Shown: positions 8,365-46,681, numbered from the stretch's first letter. The stretch: 64,000 nucleotides of DNA from an uncultured Alphaproteobacteria bacterium (GCA_910585375.1 CAJUCZ010000005.1:11380-75379); one strand, 5' to 3'. Made by a program: numbers and translations. Notes: generated by a model from the letters alone, not told the origin.

Positions 8365-11300
8365 TTAAAACAACTGCGGAACTCCGGCAGCGGGTTCAGT
8401 ATTGTCGTTCTTTTTAGCGCCGCTGTCCGTTTTTTGCGGCGTGGTTGCCGTTACAACTGCCGGACGGTTGGAAACCTGTGCTTTAGACATACCTGCGCCT
8501 GTTCCCGGCGGGGCAACAACCGGCGCACCACCCGGACGAACCGGAGGCTGATAGTATGCCGGCGGCTGGTAGGCCTCTTTCTTACGGCGGGCGCTTTCGC
8601 CACCGTCATCCATCAAAGGAACTTCTTCAACTTCGGCATTGTTCTGCGTATTTTTATATTGAACATTATTGGCAGACGGATAGTTGGCTTTGAAGCGTTC
8701 TTCGTTCGTGCTGTCTACCTGAAGCGGAATATCATCATCCAAACGGCGGGCGCTTTCGTCTTTAGCGCGTTCCTGTGTTCTCAGCCAGAGGTCAACCTGC
8801 GGATAAACAATGATTCTTGTACCTGCCGGAACATAAGTCATAGGCTGAATACTTGCCTTATCCGTCAGGATTTGGTTGAAAATACTGTCCATTGAGTTCA
8901 GGAAGTTCTGGCGCGCATCGTTAGCGGCTTCCTGTTTGGAGTTTTCTGTTTCTCCGTTATTCTTTTCATTTGTATTAATATAATAAGCCGCTGTTGAACT
9001 TAAGATTGTTGTCATCAAAGGCAAAGAATAGCGTTTGAACAGCTGCTGATCCAAATAGCCCAAAGCACCCCCGCGTCCCTGCGCGTCACCGGTCAGGCCG
9101 TTGAAGACAAAGATTGAGCCGTCGGGACGAATCAGGCGCCCCCAGCTGATTTGAATCTTGGCCGAGGTTGATGTTCTTTCGCCATTGGTACTGGTTACGC
9201 CGTCAATTGTGCCAATCAGCCTTGAACCGGCCGGAATCAGAATATTGCGGCCTTCCTCGGCATAGACGTTGCGCTCAACAATTGCCGTTACCGGCGTCGG
9301 GTTGCTGGAATCTATAGAGCGGGCGATAACGGCCGGAATCGGCTTATCAGCCAAAATCATTTCATCCATTTTAACACGCCAAGAAGAGATAACCTGTTCA
9401 ATGCCCTGTTCCGTCCAGTCTTTTTGCATGCCGTCAAAGTCTTCACGATTAAAACCGCTGGAGATTTTGCCGACTGAAATATTCTTCCGGCGTTCGTTCA
9501 TTGCAACACCCAAAGCATATTGGCGCTGAGGGTCATAACGTTCTCCGGGGCCAAAACCGCCGCCGGGGCCGAGGTTGGTTCCGGGACCGACACCAACGCC
9601 ATAAGCCGCACCGGGACCGAATTCTCCGGCAGGAACAAAGATTTCTCCGCCTTGCGGTTTTTTGATTTCTTCAATGCCGATCATCGTTCCGTTGTCATCA
9701 ATTACAATACCGTCAGGAAGTTTGCGCCCCAGAACATTGCCTTTTTTATCGACAACGCGGCCGTCTTCCAGAATATCTCCCAAATAATCACCGTCAGGCG
9801 TTAATGCAATATTAAAAGACTTGCGATATTCGCCGCCGTCAGCCGAACCGGGTATTTTTTCATCAATTGCACCGATTTTTATATCGCTTTTGCCGCCACT
9901 TTGTTTCGGACGAGTTCTCTCTTCCGGCGTTTTTTCATACCAGTTCACGCCGATACCGCCCAAAATATTACCGCTGGCATCCAATACCGTACCGTCTTTA
10001 TCCAATTTGCCGATGATTTTTCCGTCAATGTCTTCAACCGTACCGTCCGGATTGACATAGCCGACAAAGTTGCCGTTGGCGTCATAGGCTTTTTCTTTCT
10101 CAGGCACTTTGCCGATGACTTCATTGTTCAAGCCGATAATCTCGCCGTTTTTATTGCGGTGGCCGATAACATTGCCGTTCTCATCCACAAGTTCGCCGTT
10201 ATCATTTAAATAACCGATAACACGGCCGTCCTTGTCGACAACAATCTGATGGCTGCCGGGGCTGTAAAATTGCAGCGGATTGGCATAAGCCAAAACTTCT
10301 TTATTTTCGTCTTTCAGCTGTCCGAGCCGGTCTATTTTCCCTAAATCTTTATGATTCAGGTCATAAACCGTACCGTCCATGGCAAGTTCGCCGACAACGA
10401 TACGATCCTGATTGCGCAGCAGATAGCTGCGGTTGCCGCGGGCAATGACCTTATCATCGTTATCGACCAGAAAACCGCGGTTAATCCGTCCCAGCTTGCG
10501 GTTGGAAAAGTTCATAACCTCACCGCTGTTGCTGATATAACCGACAGCCTCAAAATTGGCATCATAAACATAAAAATCGTACAGCGCATAACCGGCTTTT
10601 TGCTCATTATGCCAAACATAGCCGTCGTGCGCGACCTGACCGACAACTTCGTTCCGGCCGTTTAACACTTCGCCTTTGGCATTGACCCGTCCGAGATACT
10701 GGTTGGCATTGTCAAAAGCAACCTGATAACGGAACAATTCGCCAATCGGATTGCCGGTTTTGGAATTTACGTTTTCATTGCCCTGAACATAGCCGATAAA
10801 CTGATTGTCTTCATCTGCCACACGGCCATCCAGAATCGAACGGCCGATGATTTTGTCATTAAAGCTCATTACCGGATAATACGGAATCAGGCGGCCGGCA
10901 ATTTCTCCGCCTTTTTTGACCAGACGCCCCTGCGCATTAACACAGCCGATGTTTTCATTATTATAATTTACCGCCGCACCGTTGACAGAGGTTACGCCGA
11001 TGACATTGCCGGTATTATCAACAATACCGTTCAGTTCGACCATATGACCGTTGATTTTGCCGTTTGAACCGACAATTTGTCCGTTGGCCAGAACACGGCC
11101 GATTTGAACGCCGCGGAAATTGCGAATTTCGGCAGCCGGCGTCAAAACGCCGAGGCTTGCGCATTTATCCGTAACGGCGCCGCCATAATTTATAATCCGG
11201 CCGGACAAAATATTCACGTTATCAATAACGCCGCCGTTCTCAACGACCCGGCCGACCGAAGAGCCGTCTTTATCCCTGACAACGCCGTCCAGACCGGCAT

Positions 11301-12993
11301 AGCCCATCAGCTCGCCGTCTACGGAAACAGCCGGAAGAAACGGATAGGCCGATCCCGTCTGCGGCATGAGTTCCGGAGAGTTGTCAGAATTTGTTTTGAC
11401 GGCAGACGTATCCGGCAGCAGCTTTGCAATAATATTGGCATTTTTATCCAATACAAAATTATCGGCGGTTAACAGGCCCAGACTTTCACCGTTTCCGTCC
11501 ACGGCAAAAGAAGCCGCAATATTTTTTCCGAGAATGCGGTTACGTTCATCCAAAACGATACCGGACTGGGTCATGCTGCCGAGGCGGGTGCCGCCGGCAT
11601 TGGTTACGTTACCGTTCAGACCCAGACGGGCGACAACGGCACCGTTAAAACTATATAAATTTTCCAGCGGGCAAGTCTGTCCGACGGCTGTTTCGGAATT
11701 ATCAAAAACATATCCGTAAGGAGAAACCACAATATCCCGTTCGCCGTTTTTTACGGACGACGCAATTGAAACCATGCCAAGGCTTTTGTTATCCGAACCG
11801 ATTATCAAAGCAGGTGACAACACGCCGCCGACAATTTTGCCGTCCGCATCGTATCCCTGCGTGCCTTTAACATAGCCGATACGGCTGCCGCTCAAATCTA
11901 TCAGCGAAGCATTGCTCAGTGCGATGCCCCGCAGGCTGCCGCGATAGTCAAACAGCGCACCCGGCGTCAGGATATTGCCGACAACACGCCCTTCGTTGTC
12001 CTGCACAATGCCGCGCGGACCGACACGACCGATAATTTCTTTGCCCGAAGCGATCAAACCCTCGGGCAGCAGGCGGCCGAGATATTGTCCTTTCAAATCA
12101 GACGCGGTGGCAGCAAAGTCAAGCATATAGCCGATAACAACATTTTTTTCATCGGCGATTGCGCCGTCGGCGCGCAGGCGGCCGACAACTTTTTCGCCAT
12201 TCACGACTTCTCCGTTATAAGACACAAAGCCCAGATATTTGCCGCGATTGTCAAAAGCATAACCGGTACGGACGATCCGGCCGATAATCTCGTTTTTATC
12301 ATTATACACAAAACCGCCGGCACGAATGCTGCCAATGATTTTGCCGTCAAAATCCGAAACTTCGCCGCCGGGAGCTACACTGCCGATAAAGGTCCCGTTC
12401 GGAGAAACAACCATTTTTGAAGAAATCAGGCGGCCGGCCAGAATATAATCACTGACCGCCTTACGGTAAGCATCGCCGGAAGGTGAAACAAAACCGACCT
12501 GCTGTCCGTCCAGCGTGGTAAAGCTGCCGTCCCCGGTAAAGCGTCCGATTGTCTTGCCGGTATCAGAATAAATCAGCCCCGGAAAAAGCACGGCGCCGAT
12601 AATGTTATAAGTATCGTCAATAACCAGACCGTTTGGCAGGGTTTTGCCGATAATTTTGCCGGAAGCAAGGCGGACAGAACCGTCATTACTGACTTTTCCG
12701 AGAAGTTTGGTATCATTTCCGACTGCAACGCCTTGCGGAACAACGCCGCCAATCAACTTGCCGTCAAAATTTACAATAAGGCTGTCGGCCGTCACGTTAC
12801 CAATCAGCTGATTATCCAAGCCGACTACACTGCCGTTCGGAATAACCTTACCTATAAGATCGCCGTTGAAATCTATTGCGCTGATTTCTTCCGCCGAGGC
12901 AGGCTGCAGCATGCAAAAAAACAGACCGGCGGCGAGAACCGCTTTCCGAATCTGACGGAAGAACCGCAAAATTATGTTTTCAAACGTCGTCAC
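8365..12993 (-). CDS. virB10: Giant VirB10/TrbI homolog (1542 aa)
   Basis: C-terminal 250 aa match the VirB10 core (VERNVYAEEGRNILIPAGSRLIGTI; IQISWGRLIRPDGSIFVFNGLTGD.QGRGGALGYLD; YVPAGTRIIVYPQVDLW). The N-terminal ~1100 aa are dozens of ~10/20-aa DG.V.D..G..IG repeats. GTG start at 12993 with a GGAGG site 8 nt upstream. Confidence 0.85.
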   Translation of the reverse strand: MTTFENIILRFFRQIRKAVLAAGLFFCMLQPASAEEISAIDFNGDLIGKVIPNGSVVGLDNQLIGNVTADSLIVNFDGKLIGGVVPQGVAVGNDTKLLGKVSNDGSVRLASGKIIGKTLPNGLVIDDTYNIIGAVLFPGLIYSDTGKTIGRFTGDGSFTTLDGQQVGFVSPSGDAYRKAVSDYILAGRLISSKMVVSPNGTFIGSVAPGGEVSDFDGKIIGSIRAGGFVYNDKNEIIGRIVRTGYAFDNRGKYLGFVSYNGEVVNGEKVVGRLRADGAIADEKNVVIGYMLDFAATASDLKGQYLGRLLPEGLIASGKEIIGRVGPRGIVQDNEGRVVGNILTPGALFDYRGSLRGIALSNASLIDLSGSRIGYVKGTQGYDADGKIVGGVLSPALIIGSDNKSLGMVSIASSVKNGERDIVVSPYGYVFDNSETAVGQTCPLENLYSFNGAVVARLGLNGNVTNAGGTRLGSMTQSGIVLDERNRILGKNIAASFAVDGNGESLGLLTADNFVLDKNANIIAKLLPDTSAVKTNSDNSPELMPQTGSAYPFLPAVSVDGELMGYAGLDGVVRDKDGSSVGRVVENGGVIDNVNILSGRIINYGGAVTDKCASLGVLTPAAEIRNFRGVQIGRVLANGQIVGSNGKINGHMVELNGIVDNTGNVIGVTSVNGAAVNYNNENIGCVNAQGRLVKKGGEIAGRLIPYYPVMSFNDKIIGRSILDGRVADEDNQFIGYVQGNENVNSKTGNPIGELFRYQVAFDNANQYLGRVNAKGEVLNGRNEVVGQVAHDGYVWHNEQKAGYALYDFYVYDANFEAVGYISNSGEVMNFSNRKLGRINRGFLVDNDDKVIARGNRSYLLRNQDRIVVGELAMDGTVYDLNHKDLGKIDRLGQLKDENKEVLAYANPLQFYSPGSHQIVVDKDGRVIGYLNDNGELVDENGNVIGHRNKNGEIIGLNNEVIGKVPEKEKAYDANGNFVGYVNPDGTVEDIDGKIIGKLDKDGTVLDASGNILGGIGVNWYEKTPEERTRPKQSGGKSDIKIGAIDEKIPGSADGGEYRKSFNIALTPDGDYLGDILEDGRVVDKKGNVLGRKLPDGIVIDDNGTMIGIEEIKKPQGGEIFVPAGEFGPGAAYGVGVGPGTNLGPGGGFGPGERYDPQRQYALGVAMNERRKNISVGKISSGFNREDFDGMQKDWTEQGIEQVISSWRVKMDEMILADKPIPAVIARSIDSSNPTPVTAIVERNVYAEEGRNILIPAGSRLIGTIDGVTSTNGERTSTSAKIQISWGRLIRPDGSIFVFNGLTGDAQGRGGALGYLDQQLFKRYSLPLMTTILSSTAAYYINTNEKNNGETENSKQEAANDARQNFLNSMDSIFNQILTDKASIQPMTYVPAGTRIIVYPQVDLWLRTQERAKDESARRLDDDIPLQVDSTNEERFKANYPSANNVQYKNTQNNAEVEEVPLMDDGGESARRKKEAYQPPAYYQPPVRPGGAPVVAPPGTGAGMSKAQVSNRPAVVTATTPQKTDSGAKKNDNTEPAAGVPQLF

Positions 12994-12995
12994 CT

Positions 12996-15900
12996 TTAAT
13001 TCCTCCGGTTTTTAGCGACTTCCGGCAAAGCATAGCCGGCAACCTTTTTATCCAAATCTATAAAGGAGCCGTTATTCTTCAAATAACCGATAACCTCCCC
13101 CTTGGCATCAACAACTTTGCCCTCGGGGTTCAATCTGCCTTTATATTTACCATCATTTCCTAATATTGTCGCCCCTATTTTGTAAATTTTACCAAGAATA
13201 TTATCTGCAGAATCGACTGCAAGACCGCCGGAAAGGCTTCGACCGGAAATCCGTCCGTCTTTGCCGCGGATGCGCCCGTCAAACTCTACAAAGCCGATAA
13301 CGTTATCGGTATTCCCGATGACAATATCGCCCTCAACGACTTCGCCAATCAGTTTTCCGGCCTGCGAGATGACATTGCCGTCAGAAAGCACACGTCCGAT
13401 AACAACATTATTGTTATCAATCACATTGCCGTTCGGCATGACCGCTCCCAAAAGCGCGCCGGAAAAATCAATAACCGCTCCGCGTTTAAGCAGGCTCAGG
13501 TTTTTATCCGTTGCTCCGCCGGGCAAAATGGCGGTCAAGGTATTGCTTTTAAGATCCAGCACATCGCCGACCGAAGTCATGCGGCCGCGATATCCGCCCC
13601 AGATATCAATCAAAATATTTTCAGGGACGACTTCGCCGATAACGGCGTTGCTTTTGTTCAGCACTTTGCCGTCGGAGCTGACACGACCGGTTTCTTTACC
13701 CTCCAAGCTGACAACCCGCCCGTCCGGCAGGACATACCCCAGATAGGCGCCGTCATAACCGATAGCCGCACCGCTGCGAATCACCGCTCCGAGATACTCG
13801 CCTTTGCTGCCGATAAAATTGCCTTTGGCATCAATATTGCCCAAAACATCGCCAAAGCGGTTCTGAACTCTGCCGTCATAATTGCTGCGGCCGATGACTT
13901 TGCCGTCAAACCCGACAATTTGTCCGATACGGACCGGCGTTCCCAAAATCTGATTATAAAAACTCAGTCCGTCGCCGTTAATTTTACCCAGAGATACGCC
14001 TTCGGTATTATAGACTTTTCCATCGGCAAAAATTGATCCCAGATAATCTCCCGATTTGTCGGAAAAAGAAGTCCTGACATCGGCGGCAATGCCGACAATT
14101 TCATTTTTATCATTCAGTACGAGGTTGTTGGCAGACAATTTCAACGGCTGCTGACCGCGCATGTTTACCTCAGCCTTTTGGTCAACAACGTTCATAAAAT
14201 TGCCGTTCAGGTCAAAGGCATACCGGCGGCCGAGAATCCGTCCGACATAACCACCGTCTTTATTAAAGATATCTCCATACATGCCGACACAACCGACCGG
14301 CAGGCCGGCATCATTTACAACCAGACCGTCAGCGCCGACACGCCCCAGATATTTGCCGTCATAATCGACAGCCGTACCTTGTTTCAGGACACCTCCGACA
14401 AGATTGCCTTTTTCATCAAGAACCGTGCCGTCCGGATTGACGCAGCCGACATACTGATTGTTAGAATCTTTAACAATACCGTCATTGCCGGCCTCGCCGA
14501 CCAGCATACAGGCGTTATCAAAAACCTTACCGGTCTTGGTTACTTCGCCGGCATAAGTTCCGTCTTTATTCAACACAATTCCGCTGGGCAGAACTTTTAA
14601 ATCCTGCTCCTCATTATTTTTTATGACTTTGCCGTCTTTATCCAAAAAGCCGAGCTGTTTGCAGCCAAATCCGATGACCAGTCCGCCACGCACCATTTCG
14701 GCTACGACTTCCGCTCCGGACATATCCCGAACCAGCAAATTGGCACCCACACGCCCGACCGGCTGGCGCGACTGGTTTTCAATCACGCCGGAATTTGTCA
14801 GGTTTCCGAGAATCCGCCCCTGCGGCGTTATCGGAATATAACCTTCAACCAGCAGGCGGCCGATAACTTTCCCGTCTTTAGTCATTATCACGCCGTTATT
14901 ATCCGTGCGGCCGATAACATTGCCGTCTTTATCAACAACCGTACCGTCCGGCATGACGACACCGATGGCATTGCCTTCATCATCCAGAGCAACCCGTCCC
15001 GGCCGTGTGATATAACCGATAATGCGGCCATTGCTGTCAACAACATCGCCGTAGCTGTTCAGGCGGCCGATAATCCGGCCTTCCATATCCTCAACCGTAC
15101 CGTCAGCCGTAACGCGCCCTATAACTTTACCGTCTTTATCATAAACAAAACCGTATTCGGCTTCCCGCCCGATAATGTTACCGCTTTCATCCAACACCGT
15201 GCCATCCGGCATGACTTTGCCAAGTACCTTGCCTTCCTTATCCACGACAGAGCCGTCATTATTGGCAAAACCTATGACATTGCCGTTTTCATCGACCACC
15301 AGCTTGCGGTTTTCAGCCACACCGATAATATTGCCGTTATTATCTACGACCATCCCCTGCGCATTGACGCGGCCGATAACATTACCATCCTTATCCCGCA
15401 CATAACCGTCTTCATCAATTGTTCCTATGACGTCGCCGTTCGGACCGATGGCATAACGGGTTACGACATCCGTTTTATTGATAACGGAATCCCTTCCGCC
15501 GGTACCGGAATCGCAAAAATTGCAGTCTTCCTTGCGGATAGCACTGCCGGTCACAGGAACTTTTGCGGCTTTAGCGTTTTCATCACCCAATCCGACTTCA
15601 ACCCAGGTAATGATAAAATTGTTTTGGACATTTCCGGTAACAACCGGAACCCAACTGATTTGGATATGGCAGGTTTCATCACCTTTAAGAATTGTTCCGC
15701 CGCAGCCGTTGGCGAAAGAAAAGCCATCGGCCGGCGGATCGGCCAAGTTAACAGATATAATCTTGACGGACGCATGGCCATTTGTACCCAAGGTCAAAAC
15801 ATTTCGGGCATTGCTGCCAATAATTACCTGACCAAGCGGTACAGGATCCGGCGTCATGGTCAGAGGCACTTCGCCTTCAATAATCCCTCCGATTTCTATA

Positions 15901-16109
15901 TTTGTAGACAGGCCGTTTTTACGGTCAATATTAATCCCGTCATCCGTGTTTTCAAAGTTCATTGAGGTTTCTTCAACCTCTCCGCCGCTCAGCAGCAGGA
16001 GTGAAATTCCGAACAAAAAGATTAAAAGGGAAGTAACACCGACAATCAAAATGATGCGGTTGGTCTTTTTGACATATACTTCCGAATTTGTTAACTGTTC
16101 GTCGCTCAT
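12996..16109 (-). CDS. Membrane-anchored repeat protein paralogous to the VirB10 N-terminal extension (about 1037 aa from Met 16109; the ORF extends to 16160)
   Basis: N-terminal TM helix (IILIVGVTSLLIFLFGISLLLLS) followed by the same DG.V.D..G..IG repeat array as VirB10, with no VirB10 core. TAA stop at 12996-12998 lies 2 nt before the VirB10 GTG. Confidence 0.7.
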   Translation of the reverse strand: MSDEQLTNSEVYVKKTNRIILIVGVTSLLIFLFGISLLLLSGGEVEETSMNFENTDDGINIDRKNGLSTNIEIGGIIEGEVPLTMTPDPVPLGQVIIGSNARNVLTLGTNGHASVKIISVNLADPPADGFSFANGCGGTILKGDETCHIQISWVPVVTGNVQNNFIITWVEVGLGDENAKAAKVPVTGSAIRKEDCNFCDSGTGGRDSVINKTDVVTRYAIGPNGDVIGTIDEDGYVRDKDGNVIGRVNAQGMVVDNNGNIIGVAENRKLVVDENGNVIGFANNDGSVVDKEGKVLGKVMPDGTVLDESGNIIGREAEYGFVYDKDGKVIGRVTADGTVEDMEGRIIGRLNSYGDVVDSNGRIIGYITRPGRVALDDEGNAIGVVMPDGTVVDKDGNVIGRTDNNGVIMTKDGKVIGRLLVEGYIPITPQGRILGNLTNSGVIENQSRQPVGRVGANLLVRDMSGAEVVAEMVRGGLVIGFGCKQLGFLDKDGKVIKNNEEQDLKVLPSGIVLNKDGTYAGEVTKTGKVFDNACMLVGEAGNDGIVKDSNNQYVGCVNPDGTVLDEKGNLVGGVLKQGTAVDYDGKYLGRVGADGLVVNDAGLPVGCVGMYGDIFNKDGGYVGRILGRRYAFDLNGNFMNVVDQKAEVNMRGQQPLKLSANNLVLNDKNEIVGIAADVRTSFSDKSGDYLGSIFADGKVYNTEGVSLGKINGDGLSFYNQILGTPVRIGQIVGFDGKVIGRSNYDGRVQNRFGDVLGNIDAKGNFIGSKGEYLGAVIRSGAAIGYDGAYLGYVLPDGRVVSLEGKETGRVSSDGKVLNKSNAVIGEVVPENILIDIWGGYRGRMTSVGDVLDLKSNTLTAILPGGATDKNLSLLKRGAVIDFSGALLGAVMPNGNVIDNNNVVIGRVLSDGNVISQAGKLIGEVVEGDIVIGNTDNVIGFVEFDGRIRGKDGRISGRSLSGGLAVDSADNILGKIYKIGATILGNDGKYKGRLNPEGKVVDAKGEVIGYLKNNGSFIDLDKKVAGYALPEVAKNRRN

Positions 16110-17806
16110 TGGGTCCTGACTACACTGCAAAATACACCGCTGCGTCCGAGTTTTCCGCAAACAGCATCACCCTCTTCCAGCGAATTAACCGGCCCGACAC
16201 GCAGGTGGAAAAGCTCTTTGCCTTGTCCGTCCGCCGGTGCGTCAACAGAGAAGAACGGATCATAAATGCTCAGGCTGTCTGCGTATTTTTTGGAAAGATT
16301 GTTCCATAAAACCTCCAATTTTGAAACATCGGAATCTGTACCGAGTTCAATGGAAATGTTGTTGGAGCCATCGGCCAAGGTATCTCCGTAGGCAAATTTA
16401 TCAAGATACTTATATCCTTTGCCGTAACGGTTATTATTTGTAATCCGCTGCATTTTGGAATAATCAACGTTTTCCATGCCTTTGGGCATTTTGCCTGCGG
16501 TTTCATAGCCAATTCCGATGTTGCCGCCTGCATTGTTTTTATATTGAGGTTCAATAATCTCGCTGTTGCCGACCTGAATGTCATATTGTGCCGGAGTACC
16601 ATTTTTTGCATCTTCCAGACTTATGCCGCCGGAAGAATCGGATGCTCCGCTTCCGCCAACCCGAACAGAAGCGTTCGGTATGGCGTAAGGGTTGTTAGTT
16701 CCCGGAGCCTGACTCTGCGGCATTCCGGAACCTGGAAGCGGCGCGGGTACATCCCATTGCGGCGGCAAACCTTCTCCGCCCGGCGCATTTTCCAATCCGA
16801 CATCATCGCCGCGACGCAGCTTCAGGCAGATAATCCTTTTACCGTTACGCAACACAATATCACCAATACCTTCAACTATAATCAACCGGTTATCCGGTCC
16901 GGCCGCCCTAAAACCGACGGGAACTTCCATGCGTTCGACAATCAGGGTGGCAATCGGCCGCTGGTTCATATTCAGCGCCCGTTTGCCAAAGTCTATATAA
17001 GTAAAGATATCGTCACGCCAAACGCGTTCCGGCGCAATCACGACGTCATCAGGATTAGGAACATAAACTTCAACGTCAAACTTGAATTTGGACGGATCTA
17101 CCGGAATTTCCCGCAGCCAGTTATCATCCTGGAAGCGGCGGAGCTGCGTTGCATCTGCTGATTTTGCTCCGGATGACAAACCGGCGCTTCCTCCGTTAAA
17201 ATTTCGGCCGTATCCTCCAGACATACCGCCCAGCCCTGTTTTTTTGCCATTTGCCCCGCGGCCGGCAATAACCTCAATATCAATAATGGAATTAGTCAAC
17301 CGTTCAGTATTAACCGCTTCGCTTTTAACATAAAAGACATAACGGTTTCCGGACCGCCCAAAGATAATCACGTTGGTATCAACACCGACATTTGCGCCCT
17401 GCCGGGGATATAAAAGGACGGTATTGGGACCGGAGATTTGTCCGTCAAATGTGGCATTATCCCCGATAAAGACATCTTCAACCATTTCCCACTCAGGAAA
17501 ATTGAGCAAAGTCATCATGCCTTCGCGCAAGCGGACCGGCAAAACCAAATCCGGCGTCCAATAGTATTTGGAATAAGCGGGACGCGACTGCCCCTCACCA
17601 AGGTTTTGCATCGGATCCAGCCAGGCACTTTGTGTCATACCCAAAGAATTGAAGCCGGCATAGCCGAGGTTCATGGGCTGATAGTTGCCGTTGACTTCAT
17701 CTGCACTGTTATTAACCTGATCTACAGTCTGAGCCATAAGGAACGGAGCCCCGGCAACAAAAACCAGCAGGGCCGTGAGGCTGAATTTTACGACTTTGCG
17801 AAACAT
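16106..17806 (-). CDS. virB9: VirB9/TrbG-like protein with a ~230-aa C-terminal extension (566 aa)
   Basis: Signal peptide. VirB9-like N-domain (LVLPVRLREGMMTLLNFPEWEMVEDVFIGD..., TNVIIFGRSGNRYVFYVKS) and C-domain (RPIATLIVERMEVPVGF...IIVEGIGDIVLRNGKRIICLKLRRG), then a G/S/N-rich extension. Confidence 0.65.
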   Translation of the reverse strand: MFRKVVKFSLTALLVFVAGAPFLMAQTVDQVNNSADEVNGNYQPMNLGYAGFNSLGMTQSAWLDPMQNLGEGQSRPAYSKYYWTPDLVLPVRLREGMMTLLNFPEWEMVEDVFIGDNATFDGQISGPNTVLLYPRQGANVGVDTNVIIFGRSGNRYVFYVKSEAVNTERLTNSIIDIEVIAGRGANGKKTGLGGMSGGYGRNFNGGSAGLSSGAKSADATQLRRFQDDNWLREIPVDPSKFKFDVEVYVPNPDDVVIAPERVWRDDIFTYIDFGKRALNMNQRPIATLIVERMEVPVGFRAAGPDNRLIIVEGIGDIVLRNGKRIICLKLRRGDDVGLENAPGGEGLPPQWDVPAPLPGSGMPQSQAPGTNNPYAIPNASVRVGGSGASDSSGGISLEDAKNGTPAQYDIQVGNSEIIEPQYKNNAGGNIGIGYETAGKMPKGMENVDYSKMQRITNNNRYGKGYKYLDKFAYGDTLADGSNNISIELGTDSDVSKLEVLWNNLSKKYADSLSIYDPFFSVDAPADGQGKELFHLRVGPVNSLEEGDAVCGKLGRSGVFCSVVRTQ

Positions 17807-37359: not shown

Positions 37360-38634
37360 GTGTTAGAAGACGCAAACCTGACAGAAGAAGATGTAGAAAA
37401 AGGCAATGAACGGACATGGAGCTCATCCATGACCGTTGCCGGCACGGAATATGCGACGAGCCTCTTCTGGCAGCCGCTGCAAAACCGCGATGATCCGTAT
37501 CAGGAAGTTGAAGAAGCTTCTTCCGGAATTATGGAAGGCGCAGACTTGTTCTGTATCAAGCCAGGTAAAGCACCGCAGTTTGGTATTTGCGTATCGGAAG
37601 AAGGTTTTCGCAAAGGAATGGATGTTGCCGTTGTTGCTTTGGCAACGGCTTTGTCCGACAGGTCTTCTCTGGTTGCAGTTTTTAAGGTAGAAAACGGCTG
37701 GTGGTATGTTTGTATCAGAAACGATATTATTCTTTCTGACGGTGACATGCTGTTCCTTAATGAGGAAGATGCCAAAAGCCAGTTTGAATCGATGATGGCA
37801 GTTCCCGACTGGAGACGCAGGATCGCACCGCCGGAATGGGGATACGAAGACACAGAATATCCTGACCTTGAAAAGATTTTGGCCCGCGGCGGAAAAGCCA
37901 AGCTGAAAAAAATCAAGGCTTTGCGCGGAACAAAACTGATTTTGGTCATTGTTGTTTCGGTATCTGTCGGCTTTTACCTGCTTTCCAATATTTTATCCGA
38001 AATCTTTTTTGCGCCGCCCAAACGCCCTCCGGTCACGGTACCGATTGTACCTAAGGCCGCACCGGTACAGAAACTGCCGGAAATCAAACCTTGGGAAAAA
38101 GTAAAAGATCCGTTTCAGGTTATGACCGGTTGCCAAAATGCCGTGGTTAAGTTGTTGACGATTGTAACGCCGGGATGGGAAATCGGCCAGATAAAATGTT
38201 CGGACAGCAATGCCCAGACCGCATGGAGCAGAAAAGTCGGCCGCGTATCTTGGATAAAAAAAGCCTTGGAAGATTCCGGCGTTAAGTTCAGCGGTGTTTT
38301 ATATTCCGAAACAGGAGATCAGGCAACCGTATCGTTACAATTCGGACCGGTAGCGCAGAAAAAATCTCCCCCTGCTTATGCAACACAGCAGTTGAAACTG
38401 ATTTTAAATGACTTTTTTCAGGGAATCGGCCAAAAAATATCAATGACCAACTCGTCTTTTACTTCTCCTGAGCATAACGTTTACCGTTCGGTTGTTTTTA
38501 AGTTTTCATCGAAGTATAAACCGGTGGTCTGGCGGGATTTGTTAATGAAATTTTCAGGACTTGAGATTAAAAGTATAACTTATACACCATCGACAAAACA
38601 ATGGGATTATGAAGGAGCAATCTATGTGTTATAG
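37360..38634 (+). CDS. Bitopic inner-membrane protein (424 aa), PilO-like by position
   Basis: Cytoplasmic N-domain, one TM helix (LILVIVVSVSVGFYLLSNIL) and a periplasmic C-domain; matches the R64 pilO slot. Confidence 0.4.
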   Translation: MLEDANLTEEDVEKGNERTWSSSMTVAGTEYATSLFWQPLQNRDDPYQEVEEASSGIMEGADLFCIKPGKAPQFGICVSEEGFRKGMDVAVVALATALSDRSSLVAVFKVENGWWYVCIRNDIILSDGDMLFLNEEDAKSQFESMMAVPDWRRRIAPPEWGYEDTEYPDLEKILARGGKAKLKKIKALRGTKLILVIVVSVSVGFYLLSNILSEIFFAPPKRPPVTVPIVPKAAPVQKLPEIKPWEKVKDPFQVMTGCQNAVVKLLTIVTPGWEIGQIKCSDSNAQTAWSRKVGRVSWIKKALEDSGVKFSGVLYSETGDQATVSLQFGPVAQKKSPPAYATQQLKLILNDFFQGIGQKISMTNSSFTSPEHNVYRSVVFKFSSKYKPVVWRDLLMKFSGLEIKSITYTPSTKQWDYEGAIYVL

Positions 38635-40267
38635 TAAGAAAGATTTTAGCCGGAGGGCTTTGGCGGCGCTCATTTTGGGAATGATGTTTTCCGGAAATGC
38701 GATGGCAGCCGATAAAGACTCAGCCATAGATTTGGGATTTGACGACGAATTCGGCATATCTGCCGATGAGCTCGGCGGCTCTGCTGCTCCCAAACCCCAG
38801 CTCAGCATAGACAAAGACGGCAACAAAGGCGGGTTGTTGGCTCCGGCACACGGAATTGTCCCGAAGACGGGCGCTGCGCCGATTGTGCCGAAAACAGGTA
38901 TTGTTCCCAAGACCGGCGAAGCTCCCATTGTCCCTAAAACAGGTGCTTTGCCTAATGGCATCGTTCCCAAGACGGGTGCCGCGCCGATTGTGCCGAAAAC
39001 AGGCATTGTTCCCAAGACCGGCGAAGCTCCCATTGTCCCTAAAACAGGTGCTTTGCCTAATGGTATCGTTCCAAAGACGGGTGCCGCACCGGTTGTACCG
39101 AAAACAGGTATTGTTCCCAAGACCGGCGAAGCCCCCATTGTCCCTAAAACAGGTGCTTTGCCGAGCGGTGTTGTCCCGAAGACGGGTGCCGCACCGGGGG
39201 GTATTGTTCCCAAAACCGGAGGACTTTTGCCTCCGGAACAAGATGTCGCTCCCAGTCTGCCGCAGACAACCGCCGCAATGAACGTTTTGGATGAACTTGA
39301 TGATGAAGTTTTCTCCCAAATGACAGACATTGAAAAACAGACGGCAATTTTGTCATTGGAATTGCGCAGAGAAAAACTCAGAAATGAAATTGAAGCAATC
39401 AAGGCTCAGCGGCTGAAAGCTCAAAACGAAGTTTTTGAAAAAGAAGAAGCAGAAAAGCTTAAAAGACTGGAATGGGAAAAAGAGCAGGAACGCAAAATTA
39501 TTGAAGAGCAAGTCAAATTGCGCAAAGTTGAAATTGCTTATGAAAAAATGCGTCAGGAAGGCCTGTTGAATGCTTATAAAGAGCAGATGCTGAAAGAACA
39601 GCAGCGTTGGATTGAAAACAATGCCGGCATTTATGAGCGAATTGCCCATGAGAAAAAAGACCGTGAGGAATTTACCCAAAATGTTAAAGAAAGGCTGAGC
39701 CGACTGATGGATGCGTTGAATAAAGCCAATCAGATTGCAGAAACAGCCGTGGAAAACCACAAAAAAGAGGTTTCGGAACTGCAGACCCAGATTTCTATTT
39801 TGAAAGCCCGTCTGGAAGCCGAAAAGAAGACTAATCCGTTTGCTGACGGACAGGTTCCGGCCAATGCAGCAGCTGCAGAACAGGAAGAAGAAGACGAAGA
39901 GTTTAGAGTCAGCGACCTTTATGTGGTTATGGAAATTACCGGTCAGGGCGATGAACTGGTTGCCAAACTGATGAACCGCGATGGACAGACATTTTTGGCG
40001 AGAACAGGTACGATGTTGCAAACGGGCCAAAAAGTTGACCAGATTGCCACGACACACGTCCGTGTTGACAGAGGCGGCATTAAAGATTATCTATACTTCT
40101 CTGCCGGCGGCGTGATTGACAAAGAACCATTGAACGGTGCGGCAAAAGCTATTGAAAAAGAGGCCGAGGAAAAGAATAAAGAAAAAACGGCAACGGAAAA
40201 ACCCAAAAAATCGGTTGTTTCCAGCCGCGGGATTCCCGGCGTCAGCAAAGACATGATATTGAGGTAA
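38609..40267 (+). CDS. Secreted PKTG-repeat / coiled-coil protein (552 aa), PilP-like by position
   Basis: Signal peptide (NAMAADKD), about 12 xxVPKTG repeats, a long coiled coil and a C-terminal globular domain. Confidence 0.45.
   Translation: MKEQSMCYSKKDFSRRALAALILGMMFSGNAMAADKDSAIDLGFDDEFGISADELGGSAAPKPQLSIDKDGNKGGLLAPAHGIVPKTGAAPIVPKTGIVPKTGEAPIVPKTGALPNGIVPKTGAAPIVPKTGIVPKTGEAPIVPKTGALPNGIVPKTGAAPVVPKTGIVPKTGEAPIVPKTGALPSGVVPKTGAAPGGIVPKTGGLLPPEQDVAPSLPQTTAAMNVLDELDDEVFSQMTDIEKQTAILSLELRREKLRNEIEAIKAQRLKAQNEVFEKEEAEKLKRLEWEKEQERKIIEEQVKLRKVEIAYEKMRQEGLLNAYKEQMLKEQQRWIENNAGIYERIAHEKKDREEFTQNVKERLSRLMDALNKANQIAETAVENHKKEVSELQTQISILKARLEAEKKTNPFADGQVPANAAAAEQEEEDEEFRVSDLYVVMEITGQGDELVAKLMNRDGQTFLARTGTMLQTGQKVDQIATTHVRVDRGGIKDYLYFSAGGVIDKEPLNGAAKAIEKEAEEKNKEKTATEKPKKSVVSSRGIPGVSKDMILR
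38851..39240 (+). repeat. Three tandem ~129-bp in-frame DNA repeats encoding G(I/V)VPKTGAAPIVPKTGIVPKTGEAPIVPKTGALPN
   Basis: Near-identical 129-bp units are visible directly in the nucleotide sequence. Confidence 0.7.
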
Positions 40268-40276
40268 CCTGAAAAA

Positions 40277-41950
40277 ATGGCAGAAGAGGATGAAGGTTTA
40301 AGCTCCCAAACTCCCGAGAAAGTAGTCTCCAGCGGCGGCGTTATCGAAGAAGAAACTGGCAGAAGAACCGGAAAACGGGTTGAAGACTATTTTCCTCAGG
40401 GCGTTACTCTTCTGACACTTCCGAACAGCGAAGACTTTATCATTAACGATGACACACGCCGCTTGCTGGCTTTGTTCTCAAACGGGCTGTTTCTTGTGTC
40501 GGAAACACATAAGTTTGACGGACGCGTTCTAAGCTTTGAGGTCTTGGCCCGCAAGAAAAAAGTTGTTATCAACAAACCGACATATGTTTCCCAAAACGAG
40601 TTGAACGCCATTTATACTTATGGCGAGCGTGCCGCCAATGTGGCAGCGGAAGAGGCCGATACGGTCGATTTGACCGCCGACCAGATGCAAATGCAAAAAG
40701 ACTTTGTGCAGGTGGTTGAACGCGCCGCACTCTTAAAGGTGTCGGATATTCATATTGTGGTGGCGGACAGTACGCAGATTTTGTTCCGTATCAACGGTAT
40801 GATGCAGACAATGATGGAATATAACAAAGACTGGGGCGAGGCTTTTGTGCGGGCAGCGTTTGCGTCTTCAGACATTTCCGATGCAAACTATACGCAAAAT
40901 GAATTTCAGGCAGCACAAAAACTTGGTTCGACACCGTTGCGCGGTTCTAAGGGCAAACTGATGTTGCCGCACAATGTGTTGGCTATCCGTTTGCAATTTA
41001 ACCCGATTGCTTTCGGATCGCAATATCTGGTTATGCGTTTGTTGTATGCCGATGACAATCCTGACGGTTCCGGCGACTTGCAGGCTTTGGGTTTTGGAGA
41101 ATATGAAGAAAACCTGTTTTACCGGCTGCGCGCCGTGCCGGTAGGCATTTCCATTATTGCGGGTCCGACAGGTTCCGGAAAATCGACCACACTGCAAAGA
41201 AACATGATTAAGCTTTTGCAGGAAAAAAATTATGAAATTAACCTCCTGACCGTGGAAGACCCGCCAGAATACCCCATTCCGGGGGCGCGTCAGATGCCGG
41301 TAACCAACGCCAACACTGAAGAAGAAAAAGACGAACAGTTCAACAAAGCGCTTGCCGCCGCTCTGCGTTCCGACCCTGACGTTATTATGGTGGGCGAGGT
41401 GCGAACATTGGCTGCGGCACAACTGGCTTTTAAAGGCGCATTGTCCGGACACGGAATGTGGACGACCCTGCACGCCAACTCGGCGCCGGCGATTATCACG
41501 CGTCTGATGGATATGGGCGTAGAACCGTTTAAGCTGACCGATCCTGAAATTATGAAGGGACTGATTTCGCAACGTTTGTTTCGCAAACTTTGTCCGCACT
41601 GCCGTGTTTCTGTAAAAGAAAAGCTTGACCAACCTTCGGTAAAGCGGTTAAAAACCGCTTTGGGCGATTTCGGAATTGAAAATACATACATTCGAGGGCC
41701 GGGTTGCAAATATTGCGGCAATCAAGGGGTTAAAGGCCGGATGAGCGTGCCGGAGATTATTCTGCCGGACGCGACTTTTCTGGAGCTGATGACAACCGGC
41801 GAAACCAGAAAGGCCATTGACTACTGGACAGGAGATTTAGGCGGCAGAACACTGCGTGACGCCGCGATTGAGCGTATGCTCAAAGGATATTTGGATTTGG
41901 AAGAAATCGAGCGTTGGTGCGGTTTGCTTGACCAACGTCCGTCATATTAA
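40277..41950 (+). CDS. GspE/PilB-family assembly ATPase (PilQ-like, 557 aa)
   Basis: Walker A (IIAGPTGSGKSTTL), Asp box and Walker B (DPDVIMVGEVR), His box (GHGMWTTLHANSA) and a tetracysteine CPHC...CKYC zinc motif. Confidence 0.85.
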   Translation: MAEEDEGLSSQTPEKVVSSGGVIEEETGRRTGKRVEDYFPQGVTLLTLPNSEDFIINDDTRRLLALFSNGLFLVSETHKFDGRVLSFEVLARKKKVVINKPTYVSQNELNAIYTYGERAANVAAEEADTVDLTADQMQMQKDFVQVVERAALLKVSDIHIVVADSTQILFRINGMMQTMMEYNKDWGEAFVRAAFASSDISDANYTQNEFQAAQKLGSTPLRGSKGKLMLPHNVLAIRLQFNPIAFGSQYLVMRLLYADDNPDGSGDLQALGFGEYEENLFYRLRAVPVGISIIAGPTGSGKSTTLQRNMIKLLQEKNYEINLLTVEDPPEYPIPGARQMPVTNANTEEEKDEQFNKALAAALRSDPDVIMVGEVRTLAAAQLAFKGALSGHGMWTTLHANSAPAIITRLMDMGVEPFKLTDPEIMKGLISQRLFRKLCPHCRVSVKEKLDQPSVKRLKTALGDFGIENTYIRGPGCKYCGNQGVKGRMSVPEIILPDATFLELMTTGETRKAIDYWTGDLGGRTLRDAAIERMLKGYLDLEEIERWCGLLDQRPSY

Positions 41951-41968
41951 AAAACGGAGTTTGAAATT

Positions 41969-43093
41969 ATGGCAAGAGATGACAGAAGATCTGCTTCATT
42001 ACAAAAGGCGATGAAGCGCCTGAATGCCGTTGAGGTGCAATATGCCAGGCTGGTCGTTAACATGTCCAACAACGCACGGCTGAAACTTTATCGCAAAATC
42101 GCCTCGCTGATGCGCAACCGCTTTTCTCTGATGGATGCGCTTGACCGTTTGCATGACGGCATTTCCAATGGCGGAAAAAACGCCGGTGAGCCTTTTGCCA
42201 TTGCCATTGTCGAATGGTCAAAAAAGCTGCAAAACGGTATTCCGTTTTCCGATGCGCTGAAAGGCTGGGCGCCCGACCGCGAAAGGCTGATGCTTTCGGT
42301 CGGTGACGTTTCTGACTTGGAAATGGCGTTATTAAACCTTATCCGCGTGACTGAAGGGTCTGCAAAGATGGTGCGTCCGATTATCGGCGCGGTTACTTAT
42401 CCGAGCTTTTTGTTTATGATGGCGGTTCTGATTATCTATGCCATCGGCGCCTATATGGTGCCGCCGATGATTGACGCCGCGCCGGACGTGGTCTGGACAG
42501 GTTTGGCCAGGGATTTGGTTGACGTTTCATATTGGATTAAAGACTACTGGATTGTCGCGTTTTCGGCGCTGCCGATTATTATGATTGTGATTTACGGAAC
42601 CATCGGAATTTGGACCGGTCCGATACGGGCGATTTTTGACAAATTGCCGCCGTGGTCCCTGTATAAAGTTTTTACCGGCATCAGCTGGCTTTTGGCGCTT
42701 TCAGCTCTGGTAAAAGGCGGAACGCCGGTTTCTAATGCCCTCAGGGCTTTGCGAAGGGATTCCAGCCGTTATCTGAAAGAACGCATTGACAAGACGCTGG
42801 TTTACATTAACGCCGGTGAAAACCTCGGACAAGCTTTGGCCAAAACAAATCTGGACTTTCCGGATGTTGAGATTATCGGCGACCTCAAGATTTATTCCGA
42901 GTTGGACAACTTTGAAGAGGCTTTGGAAAAACTGGCTAACGACTGGCTGGATGAAAGTGTGTACTTGATTGAACAAAAAGCCTCAATCTTAAACATGGTG
43001 GCGCTGTTGTCTATCGGCGGCGTTATCGCCTGGGCAGTTATGGGTACCTTTGAAATGCAAGACCAGATTACCAGCAACATGGGTCGCGGCTAA
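41969..43093 (+). CDS. GspF/PilC-family platform protein (PilR-like, 374 aa)
   Basis: Three hydrophobic helices alternating with two cytoplasmic T2SSF-like domains; follows the ATPase. Confidence 0.75.
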   Translation: MARDDRRSASLQKAMKRLNAVEVQYARLVVNMSNNARLKLYRKIASLMRNRFSLMDALDRLHDGISNGGKNAGEPFAIAIVEWSKKLQNGIPFSDALKGWAPDRERLMLSVGDVSDLEMALLNLIRVTEGSAKMVRPIIGAVTYPSFLFMMAVLIIYAIGAYMVPPMIDAAPDVVWTGLARDLVDVSYWIKDYWIVAFSALPIIMIVIYGTIGIWTGPIRAIFDKLPPWSLYKVFTGISWLLALSALVKGGTPVSNALRALRRDSSRYLKERIDKTLVYINAGENLGQALAKTNLDFPDVEIIGDLKIYSELDNFEEALEKLANDWLDESVYLIEQKASILNMVALLSIGGVIAWAVMGTFEMQDQITSNMGRG

Positions 43094-45718: not shown

Positions 45719-46681
45719 TTAATATTCCTGAAACAGGCTCATGCCGCGGGCAAGGCGGGTCATTTGGGTTTCAATTGACGTACCAAGGTTTAACTTGCCG
45801 CTTTTGATAATGCCGCGCACCTGATCGCCGTGGGAAGAGTTCGGGTTGGCAAAGAGGTAGGTCGCTACCGGTTTTTTTACGCTCGTGCCCATTAATCCCT
45901 GATGCAATACGCCGATAATACCACGGGAGAACAAGTCATAGGCCAACTCTTCGCTCATTGACGTAGAGGCGGCGTATTTAACAACAGAATAAATCGCATC
46001 GGTAATGTTATTGGCGTGAATGGTCGAAAGCACCAAGTGGCCGGAAGTGGCAGCGCGCAAGACCTCGCTGGCGGTATCGGGTGTTCTGATCTCTCCTACC
46101 AGAATATAGTTTGGTTTTGAGCGCAATGCCGATTTTAACGAAGCCCCCCAGTCATCATTCTGAGGCTGCGTCTGTTTGCACAAGCCCAAGCCGCCTTTGG
46201 TGGATTTGTAAATCCCGTCCAGAGGCATTTCGGTCGGGTCTTCAATGGTATAAGCAAAGCCGCCTTCAATTGCCAAAAACTCTTTCAACAGCGAAGAAAT
46301 GGCCGTGGTTTTGCCGGCGCCGGTCGGACCTGACCACAGAATAAGACCGGAAGCGTTTGACAATGACAGCAGGAACTTGGTTAATTCATGCGGAAAACCC
46401 AGACTGCCGAAAGGCGGGACTTTCTCCGGCATTTTACGGGCACAATATTGTGTACCGTACAGGCTTTCGGTTCGCTCAACACGGTAAAAAATGTTTTCAT
46501 AAAGCAAGGAATAAGACGGGTTATGGCCGTCCCATTTTTCTTCCAGCCGTTTATAAAAAATGTCAAAATCTTCGGCATCCAAAATTGTCAGGCCGTTTTT
46601 GGTCTGTCCGTCCGGAATGAACGCAATCCGATCCGGCGTGATGTAAATGTCCGAAAATTTGACGTCATTGATTTTTACCAT
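45719..46681 (-). CDS. pilT: PilT/PilU-family hexameric ATPase (320 aa)
   Basis: Walker A (WSGPTGAGKTTAI), YTIEDPTE, Walker B and Asp box (ILVGEIRTPDT), His box (GHLVLSTIHANN); the length is typical of PilT. DotB-like is an alternative. Confidence 0.75.
   Translation of the reverse strand: MVKINDVKFSDIYITPDRIAFIPDGQTKNGLTILDAEDFDIFYKRLEEKWDGHNPSYSLLYENIFYRVERTESLYGTQYCARKMPEKVPPFGSLGFPHELTKFLLSLSNASGLILWSGPTGAGKTTAISSLLKEFLAIEGGFAYTIEDPTEMPLDGIYKSTKGGLGLCKQTQPQNDDWGASLKSALRSKPNYILVGEIRTPDTASEVLRAATSGHLVLSTIHANNITDAIYSVVKYAASTSMSEELAYDLFSRGIIGVLHQGLMGTSVKKPVATYLFANPNSSHGDQVRGIIKSGKLNLGTSIETQMTRLARGMSLFQEY

Follow-up and report, generated by a model that had tools for sequence, protein, structure and literature searches.

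The 64,000-nucleotide stretch of DNA analyzed here (uncultured Alphaproteobacteria bacterium, GCA_910585375.1, CAJUCZ010000005.1:11380-75379; hereafter "the window", with positions counted from its first letter) encodes a giant VirB10 in a type IV secretion system (T4SS) operon and raises the question of what such a protein is. To our knowledge, no T4SS component other than VirB10 spans both membranes, and VirB10 relays ATP energy from the inner membrane (IM) to the gate in the outer membrane (OM). Canonical VirB10s are single chains of ~350–450 amino acids (aa) that consist of a cytoplasmic tail, a transmembrane helix, a Pro-rich linker and a core, whereas the window VirB10 has ~60 hairpins in place of the linker, with the anchor on a separate polypeptide. 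We consider it likely that the open reading frame (ORF), which belongs to a chromosomal VirB/ComB-like T4SS of an uncultured gut alphaproteobacterium, is the OM-proximal half of a VirB10 that was split over two genes. What is notable about this VirB10 is its beta-flower array together with the natural split into IM and OM halves; giant repeat-bearing VirB10s are already known. The ORF comprises the following features:

8365..12993, minus strand: giant VirB10 ORF, 1542 aa, GTG start; proposed OM-proximal half of a split beta-flower VirB10
13001..13006, minus strand: Shine-Dalgarno (SD) sequence GGAGGA, 7 nt 5' of the VirB10 GTG and inside the last codons (RRN) of the preceding gene, here called the partner
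12892..12993, minus strand: predicted Sec signal peptide, aa 1–34; basic n-region, 12-residue hydrophobic core, A-S-A and then E35
9664..12891, minus strand: beta-hairpin (beta-flower family) array, aa 35–1110; ~60–63 units of 17 aa, ~1075 aa in all
9394..9663, minus strand: Gly/Pro-rich linker, predicted disordered, with one helix (aa ~1155–1170), aa 1111–1200
8776..9387, minus strand: VirB10/TrbI C-terminal core, aa 1203–1406
8860..9048, minus strand: two long helices in the core, aa ~1316–1339 and 1352–1378, at the position of the VirB10 antenna in the ComB10 alignment and the model
8368..8775, minus strand: C-terminal extension, aa 1407–1542; ~135 aa, low complexity, Pro-rich, predicted disordered from aa ~1419

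Core, Start and N-terminus of VirB10

A preliminary description of this DNA had proposed a giant VirB10 with a canonical C-terminal core, and this is confirmed by the Pfam family TrbI (PF03743), which matches aa 1213–1404 with 123.4 bits (cut-off 35) over positions 2–188 of the 188 in the profile. Both peptides quoted in that description, VERNVYAEEGRNILIPAGSRLIGTI and IQISWGRLIRPDGSIFVFNGL, are found in the ORF translation. Among PDB sequences the core matches H. pylori ComB10 best (2bhv, E 9e-21) and next TraF, TrwE, CagY and Xanthomonas VirB10; the core fold is the same as that of ComB10, which belongs to the H. pylori ComB DNA-uptake T4SS, and of VirB10, TraF and TrwE. The NCBIfam models for ComB10 (E 2e-32, 112.3 bits) and VirB10 (E 5e-29, 101.3 bits) match as well, below their equivalog cut-offs of 300 and 220 bits, respectively. 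An AlphaFold2 model of aa 1040–1542 was moderately confident, with a mean predicted local distance difference test (pLDDT) value of 52.8 and 60–77 in the core, and it predicts the linker and the last ~125 residues to be disordered. When this model was compared to the PDB with Foldseek, the top 25 matches were all C-terminal domains (CTDs) of the VirB10 family (probability 1.00, target-normalized TM-score 0.5–0.56), including those of TrwE, ComB10, Xac VirB10, CagY, TraF, DotG and F-TraB. Since these matches are all VirB10 CTDs and the two helices lie at the antenna position, aa 1203–1406 form a true VirB10/TrbI core that has kept the two-helix antenna position. The gene is located between virB9 and virB11 in a VirB-type operon.

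The GTG start lies 2 nt past the TAA of the partner gene. With the SD sequence, its spacing and an equivalent start in homologs from other species, the start of the ORF is well supported. The N-terminus had been described as resembling a signal peptide and this holds for all 42 aligned homologs: the leader varies in sequence and length, with a basic n-region, a hydrophobic core of 12–18 residues and A-x-A, and it is directly followed by the invariant (Q/E)EI(T/S)AIDFNGDL. None of the 19-residue windows at the VirB10 N-terminus has transmembrane-grade hydropathy, and a cytoplasmic tail and transmembrane anchor in one chain, as in a bitopic VirB10, are not found; the transmembrane helix is on the partner. 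These features point to a cleaved Sec signal peptide and not to the canonical tail and transmembrane helix. Cleavage is predicted between A34 and E35, which would give mature VirB10 the N-terminal peptide EEISAIDFNGDLIGK. A lipoprotein N-terminus was rejected, as there is no lipobox and Cys is not conserved.

The possibility of an assembly chimera, mentioned in the preliminary description, does not hold, as 54 species-level genomes and hundreds of assemblies made independently show the same ORF structure. A chimera or frameshift artefact was rejected because the arrangement recurs independently in >50 species and because the new N-terminus has a dedicated signal peptide.

VirB10 Is Probably Split over Two Genes

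The gene upstream of VirB10 carries the modules that VirB10 itself lacks:

12996..16109, minus strand: partner ORF, 1037 aa, with ATG at 16109 and an ATGA overlap with the VirB9 stop; proposed IM-anchored half
15999..16055, minus strand: partner transmembrane helix, aa 19–37, mean hydropathy 2.76
15600..15863, minus strand: partner Ig-like module with weak ASH and choice-of-anchor-D matches, common to one-piece and array-less VirB10 relatives
13032..15464, minus strand: partner beta-flower array, ~47 units of 17 aa; invariant C-terminal tail ending in EVAKNRRN

The partner is thus ordered as a short cytoplasmic tail, a transmembrane helix, an Ig-like module and a second beta-flower array (Pfam Bflower_2, E 2e-54). 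VirB10 and the partner are the only two ORFs of the window in which the repeat is present.

The relation between the two genes becomes visible when relatives are compared. An exhaustive search with the TrbI core returned nearest relatives of three sizes, namely 1400–1650 aa, 1900–2400 aa and array-less proteins of ~370–680 aa. The large relatives all carry Bflower_2 and TrbI, and the array-less relatives of ~500–680 aa are single chains of transmembrane helix, Ig-like module and TrbI. In a sister clade all modules are present in one gene of 2100–2600 aa, in the same slot between virB9 and virB11. One of these one-piece proteins, P0144 (2287 aa), resembles the partner at its start, with a tail, a transmembrane helix and an Ig-like module, and has TrbI at its end. 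Partner aa 1–1027 align to P0144 aa 1–1033 (E 1e-87) and VirB10 aa 38–1406 to P0144 aa 901–2171 (E 6e-109). The P0144 locus (L057) has the order VirB8, 58-aa ORF, VirB8, CagX, single 2287-aa gene and VirB11, without a partner gene. The one-piece beta-flower VirB10s of sister gut metagenome-assembled genomes (MAGs) thus share modules, operon slot and repeat family with the window proteins, and their TrbI cores are 47–55% identical, but they are single chains with their own N-terminal transmembrane helix and have neither an internal signal peptide nor a partner gene. Because the sister-clade single gene holds all modules and the array-less relatives are chains of transmembrane helix, Ig-like module and TrbI, the window VirB10 is best understood as split. 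The C-terminal tails of the two forms differ: VPQLF at the end of VirB10 is conserved in the split clade and P0144 ends in SDRMF instead.

A profile made from the N-terminal 215 aa of the partner was searched against the VirB10 relatives. It matched 16 of the 17 proteins of at least 1850 aa, at residues ~1–205, and only one of the 11 proteins of 1380–1700 aa, namely P0191, which is a one-piece protein with a shorter array. The Ig-like part of the profile also matched 19 of 62 array-less relatives, upstream of TrbI (best E 1e-10). Every gut-MAG locus that was informative shows this same split.

Alternatively, the partner could be an independent accessory protein similar to DotF that shares the repeat type, in which case the two proteins do not rebuild one VirB10. 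Bitopic partners of DotG of the DotF kind do exist in type IVB systems, and the array alignments fix no unique register. This explanation nevertheless appears improbable: the sister-clade single gene has both module sets in the same operon slot, the N-terminal module of the partner is the N-terminus of array-less VirB10 relatives, and in ~50 species the two genes are strictly adjacent and translationally coupled, with a strictly conserved junction.

For a VirB10 that was split, the most parsimonious history starts with a single-chain ancestor of transmembrane helix, Ig-like module and TrbI, in which the array arose by insertion or grew by expansion at a site behind the Ig-like module and ahead of the core. 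In the lineage of the window the gene would finally have been split, with a signal peptide gained by the downstream half. The beta-flower array would in this ancestral VirB10 have replaced the usual periplasmic linker, and the later split may have occurred by fission or by duplication with reciprocal loss. Simple fission is favored because the summed arrays (~810 and ~1075 aa) come near the length of the one-piece array (~1700 aa). When the C-terminal 120 aa of the partner and the N-terminal 120 aa of VirB10 were used to map the split point on 127 one-piece proteins, the best-match positions scattered because the repeats are degenerate. Likewise, a colinear alignment of the partner and VirB10 arrays (27%) was withdrawn as a sign of specific paralogy, as other offsets score nearly alike.

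The Array Is Built of 17-residue Beta-hairpins

The repeats had been described as more than 50 copies of a motif with a period of 10 or 20 residues. The copy number stands, with 60 hairpins in the AlphaFold2 model and ~63 units in the register of a hidden Markov model (HMM), but the units recur every 17 residues. At lag 17 the residue autocorrelation reaches 0.185, compared to 0.076 ± 0.008 in 1000 shuffles (z = 14), with further peaks at lag 34 (z = 10.2) and lag 51 (z = 9.4); lags 10 (z = 1.8) and 20 (z = -2.4) are not significant. The iteratively built repeat HMM gives the consensus PDGTVVDEDGKVIGRVD, and its confident units are mostly spaced by multiples of 17, which places the register from aa ~35 to ~1110. 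At the DNA level, TRF found no tandem repeats in the array (0 rows, minimum score 30), and direct-repeat copies are 60–70% identical with spacings that are multiples of 51 nt. As there is no DNA tandem array and the copies are only 60–70% identical, the repeats must be old and diverged.

VirB10 matches the Pfam families Bflower_2 (PF21785; E 2e-58, 195.4 bits, cut-off 38, in eight stretches) and Bflower (PF21784; E 1e-20, 74.5 bits, cut-off 25), as well as DUF3659, and its homologs carry the same precomputed beta-flower domains. A sequence search of the PDB with the repeats gave no match. The beta-flower dates from 2023, when AlphaFold models alone led to its description as a shallow barrel of beta-hairpin petals with 4-, 5- or 6-fold symmetry and [DNEQ]xxG at the hairpin tip; at that time it had no PDB counterpart and no known function (Durairaj et al., 2023, PMC10584680). 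An AlphaFold2 model of VirB10 aa 36–1200, based on a 43-sequence alignment, reached a mean pLDDT of 82.9 and a predicted template modeling score (pTM) of 0.75, with 602 residues at pLDDT ≥90. It contains 120 short strands that form 60 hairpins with a 17-residue rhythm, and the hairpin unit with its [DNEQ]xxG tip is seen in both the consensus and the model. An insert within the array at aa ~1020–1059 is predicted to be disordered. Members of the beta-flower families (PF21784, PF21785 and PF21786, clan CL0395) have the same hairpin petals with an acidic/amide-x-x-Gly tip. Described examples are ~100 residues long and form a single flower, some of them being lipoproteins, whereas here 60 and 47 petals occur in T4SS core components.

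The high pTM, which covers 1165 residues, suggests that the modeled hairpins hold a defined, probably fairly rigid arrangement. This and the regular periodicity could be taken in support of the preliminary description, in which the array was a rigid beta-solenoid rod that lengthens the channel by tens of nanometers. A continuous helical strand stack like that of solved beta-helices was not found, and an extended span is not supported by the one-piece homologs, which are tethered by an N-terminal transmembrane helix and a C-terminal OM core. We regard a solenoid rod as very improbable.

Another possibility is a shell as in Rhs/YD proteins, where the hairpin arrays would form a closed cocoon around a periplasmic cargo. 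The top Foldseek matches are indeed Rhs cores, teneurins and Tc BC shells (E down to 4e-16), TIGR01643 (YD_repeat_2x) matches the partner with 28.9 bits (cut-off 15.8), and some homologs have faint RHS_repeat matches. YD repeats in a closed shell with an Rhs core or plug were not found, and we regard such a shell as extremely improbable.

In the one-piece homologs the array is bounded by an IM transmembrane helix and an OM core. On this topological ground their array has to fit inside the periplasm, and that of the split form would be periplasmic too. This bears on a further explanation, namely that the array is a surface-exposed adhesin or antigenic-variation module outside the cell that contacts targets or evades immunity, as was proposed for CagY and DotG. 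Besides this precedent, the array of the split form has a free N-terminus after the predicted signal-peptide cleavage. The anchoring of the one-piece homologs at both ends would nevertheless pin the array in the periplasm, the absence of tandem repeats by TRF and the divergence of the copies leave no DNA-level repeats to recombine, and the array is conserved rather than hypervariable, with the tip as its most conserved part. A surface module is thus quite improbable.

Within the array of the split VirB10, conservation is 0.90 at aa 36–86 compared to ~0.55 in mid-array, and aa 36–240 are the most conserved part of the array. Larger insertions among homologs are often multiples of 17 aa (17, 51, 102). 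The VirB10 half of one species (L039, 2974–10089) is ~2370 aa long and still starts with the conserved mature N-terminal landmark, so that a split-form array can grow to almost twice its length. Based on the insertions in multiples of 17 aa and this ~2370-aa half, array length is evolvable in whole units.

Proposed Assembly of the Two Halves

We propose that after export the VirB10 half places its core in the OM cap with VirB9, with the array in the periplasm. The conserved N-terminal tip of mature VirB10 would then dock non-covalently on the conserved C-terminus of the IM-anchored partner. The last 17 aa of the partner have a conservation of 0.94 and end in the invariant EVAKNRRN, so that both ends at the junction are the most conserved parts; it is from this that we infer non-covalent docking of the two halves. 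Docking would rebuild the bridge from IM to OM that passes the energized state of the ATPases to the OM gate. At ~14 copies, the usual number in such a machine, the arrays would make up a scaffold of very large size in the periplasm, a ring or cage, and not a longer span. By rough geometry ~12 flowers of VirB10 and ~10 of the partner placed end to end would exceed a normal periplasm, and the arrays therefore more likely add lateral bulk than extra span, for instance as a wide ring or cage of the kind seen in the enlarged core complexes of Cag and Dot/Icm.

Several points weigh against the split and docking that we propose. Firstly, the case for binding of the partner to VirB10 is made from conservation and gene coupling, and the last residues of the partner could in part be conserved because of the SD sequence embedded there. 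Secondly, cleavage of the VirB10 signal peptide is predicted from sequence features alone. Thirdly, alignments of the repeats reach similar scores (~200 bits) whichever offset is taken, which leaves more than one possible split point and is compatible with fission as well as with duplication and reciprocal loss. The hairpins of the array may form closed flowers or pack in another way. Lastly, no VirD4 or relaxase was present among the ORFs scanned in the 64-kb window.

Beyond a split VirB10 as such, the split could be functional: the halves, each with its long beta-flower array, would build a huge two-tier periplasmic cage of ~14 copies, its tiers held together only by a conserved non-covalent tip-to-tail joint that acts as a regulatable "clutch" between the IM ATPase platform and the OM gate, possibly enclosing a chamber. 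We put this forward as a speculation that is rather unlikely to be correct.

Comparison with Described VirB10s and Distribution

According to the preliminary description no VirB10 with this architecture had been described. This does not stand: CagY and DotG are described giant VirB10 homologs with repeat regions ahead of the TrbI core (PMC6761968), and the beta-flower version is abundant in databases. CagY (HP0527) of the H. pylori Cag T4SS is likewise a very large VirB10 with repeats N-terminal to a canonical CTD in an expanded core complex, and its CTD came up in both the sequence search (8cb2, E 2e-5) and the structure search (6x6k, 6odi). Its repeats are of another sequence type, exist at the DNA level and recombine, whereas here beta-flower hairpins make up a conserved array over two genes. 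Work by Barrozo et al. from 2013 is said to have found that the DNA repeats of CagY recombine, altering its length and function. Such DNA direct repeats that allow in-frame recombination are not seen in the window VirB10.

DotG (~1048 aa) likewise has a middle repeat region and a C-terminal TrbI, and works with the bitopic IM partner DotF (PMC6761968); the DotG dome is a structural match of the window VirB10 core (9ngw, 7muq). However, DotG has variable and recombining pentapeptide repeats and its own membrane anchor, and the window operon is type IVA-like with the VirB2–B11 order. Pfam found no match of the pentapeptide family in the window VirB10, in which the period is 17 and not 5 or 10.

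The architecture is common, as the preliminary description had allowed for, but its annotation consists of automatic names only. The split form is represented by >1000 database clusters with the same domain combination. Pipelines named the beta-flower VirB10s "hypothetical protein", "cOMB3", "conjugation trbI family protein", "TrbI/VirB10 family protein", "DUF3659 domain-containing protein" or "5-fold beta-flower protein". No description of the beta-flower VirB10 architecture was found in the searchable literature, with most subscription journals outside its scope. The 54 species-level genomes with the split form (36–98% identity) all belong to uncultured Alphaproteobacteria of the gut, with humans, deer and rabbit among the hosts. 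One split variant occurs in 467 collection blocks, including a 2.03-Mb contig, and MAGs from the human gut and the rectum of water deer share 96–98% identity with the window. The one-piece form is found in at least 120 clusters of 2060–2610 aa from similar MAGs. Another VirB10 relative, P0239 (1278 aa), has TrbI at aa 599–809 fused to a VirB11-type T2SSE ATPase domain at aa 1098–1216, which is either a VirB10–VirB11 fusion or a read-through gene call.

Operon and Neighboring Genes

The T4SS operon lies entirely on the minus strand and encodes three VirB2-like pilins, a VirB3-like ORF, VirB4, several ORFs without assignment, a secreted-type protein of 1415 aa, VirB8, a VirB7-like ORF, a second VirB8, a long VirB9/CagX, the partner, VirB10 and VirB11. 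The genes that border the two halves are:

16106..17806, minus strand: VirB9/CagX homolog, 566 aa, directly upstream of the partner
7385..8353, minus strand: VirB11-type ATPase, directly downstream of VirB10

With 566 aa, the VirB9/CagX homolog is ~2 times the usual length and has a Gly/Pro-rich middle; only CagX matched at E ≤ 0.001. Its counterpart in L057 (8249–9979) has a faint C-terminal match to the peptidoglycan-binding SPOR domain. Between the virB8 paralogs, a 62-aa ORF (18579–18767, minus strand) contains the lipobox LSGC and its position is kept in related loci (62 aa in L055, 58 aa in L057); judged by these features it is likely a VirB7-like lipoprotein. The 1415-aa ORF (19729–23976, minus strand) has a signal-peptide-like N-terminus and is syntenic, with a counterpart of 1417 aa in L055. 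It was rejected as a VirB6 since it has no transmembrane-like segments and no Pfam or NCBIfam matches. The VirB3-like ORF of 100 aa is located at 30048–30350. The three tandem VirB2/TrbC-like pilin paralogs (31416–32957, minus strand) are 223, 138 and 135 aa long, and the first has a long Cys-rich C-terminal extension.

Divergent from virB11, four ORFs of 1146, 217, 418 and 269 aa (338–6565, plus strand) have no family matches. Next to virB11 in L055 there is a similar set of four ORFs (963, 220, 423 and 239 aa), which L056 lacks at this position, and these genes may be T4SS-associated cargo or accessory genes. Near the T4SS, a type IVb pilus cluster (35014–43093, plus strand) resembles the thin-pilus sets of R64 and integrative and conjugative elements. 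It encodes a TcpQ/PilL-like protein, a secretin, a PilO-like protein, a 552-aa ORF, a T2SSE ATPase (E 3e-68) and a T2SSF platform protein, and another T2SSE-family ATPase is encoded at 45719–46681 (minus strand). The remainder of the window consists of housekeeping genes.

Implications

The carriers of this VirB10 are prevalent uncultured gut alphaproteobacteria (MAGs of the type "Azospirillum sp. CAG:239") of humans and other mammals, and with a conserved chromosomal T4SS beside a type IVb pilus they may lead a contact-dependent life. A VirB10 with 1100–1900 residues of a new fold, cut in two, is a natural experiment on signal transmission between the membranes. It also places the beta-flower fold in a first defined machine context, which makes its function testable. 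If the joint between the two halves does act as a clutch, this would be the first known function of a beta-flower, and abundant bacteria of the human gut would build their T4SS core complex in a new way.

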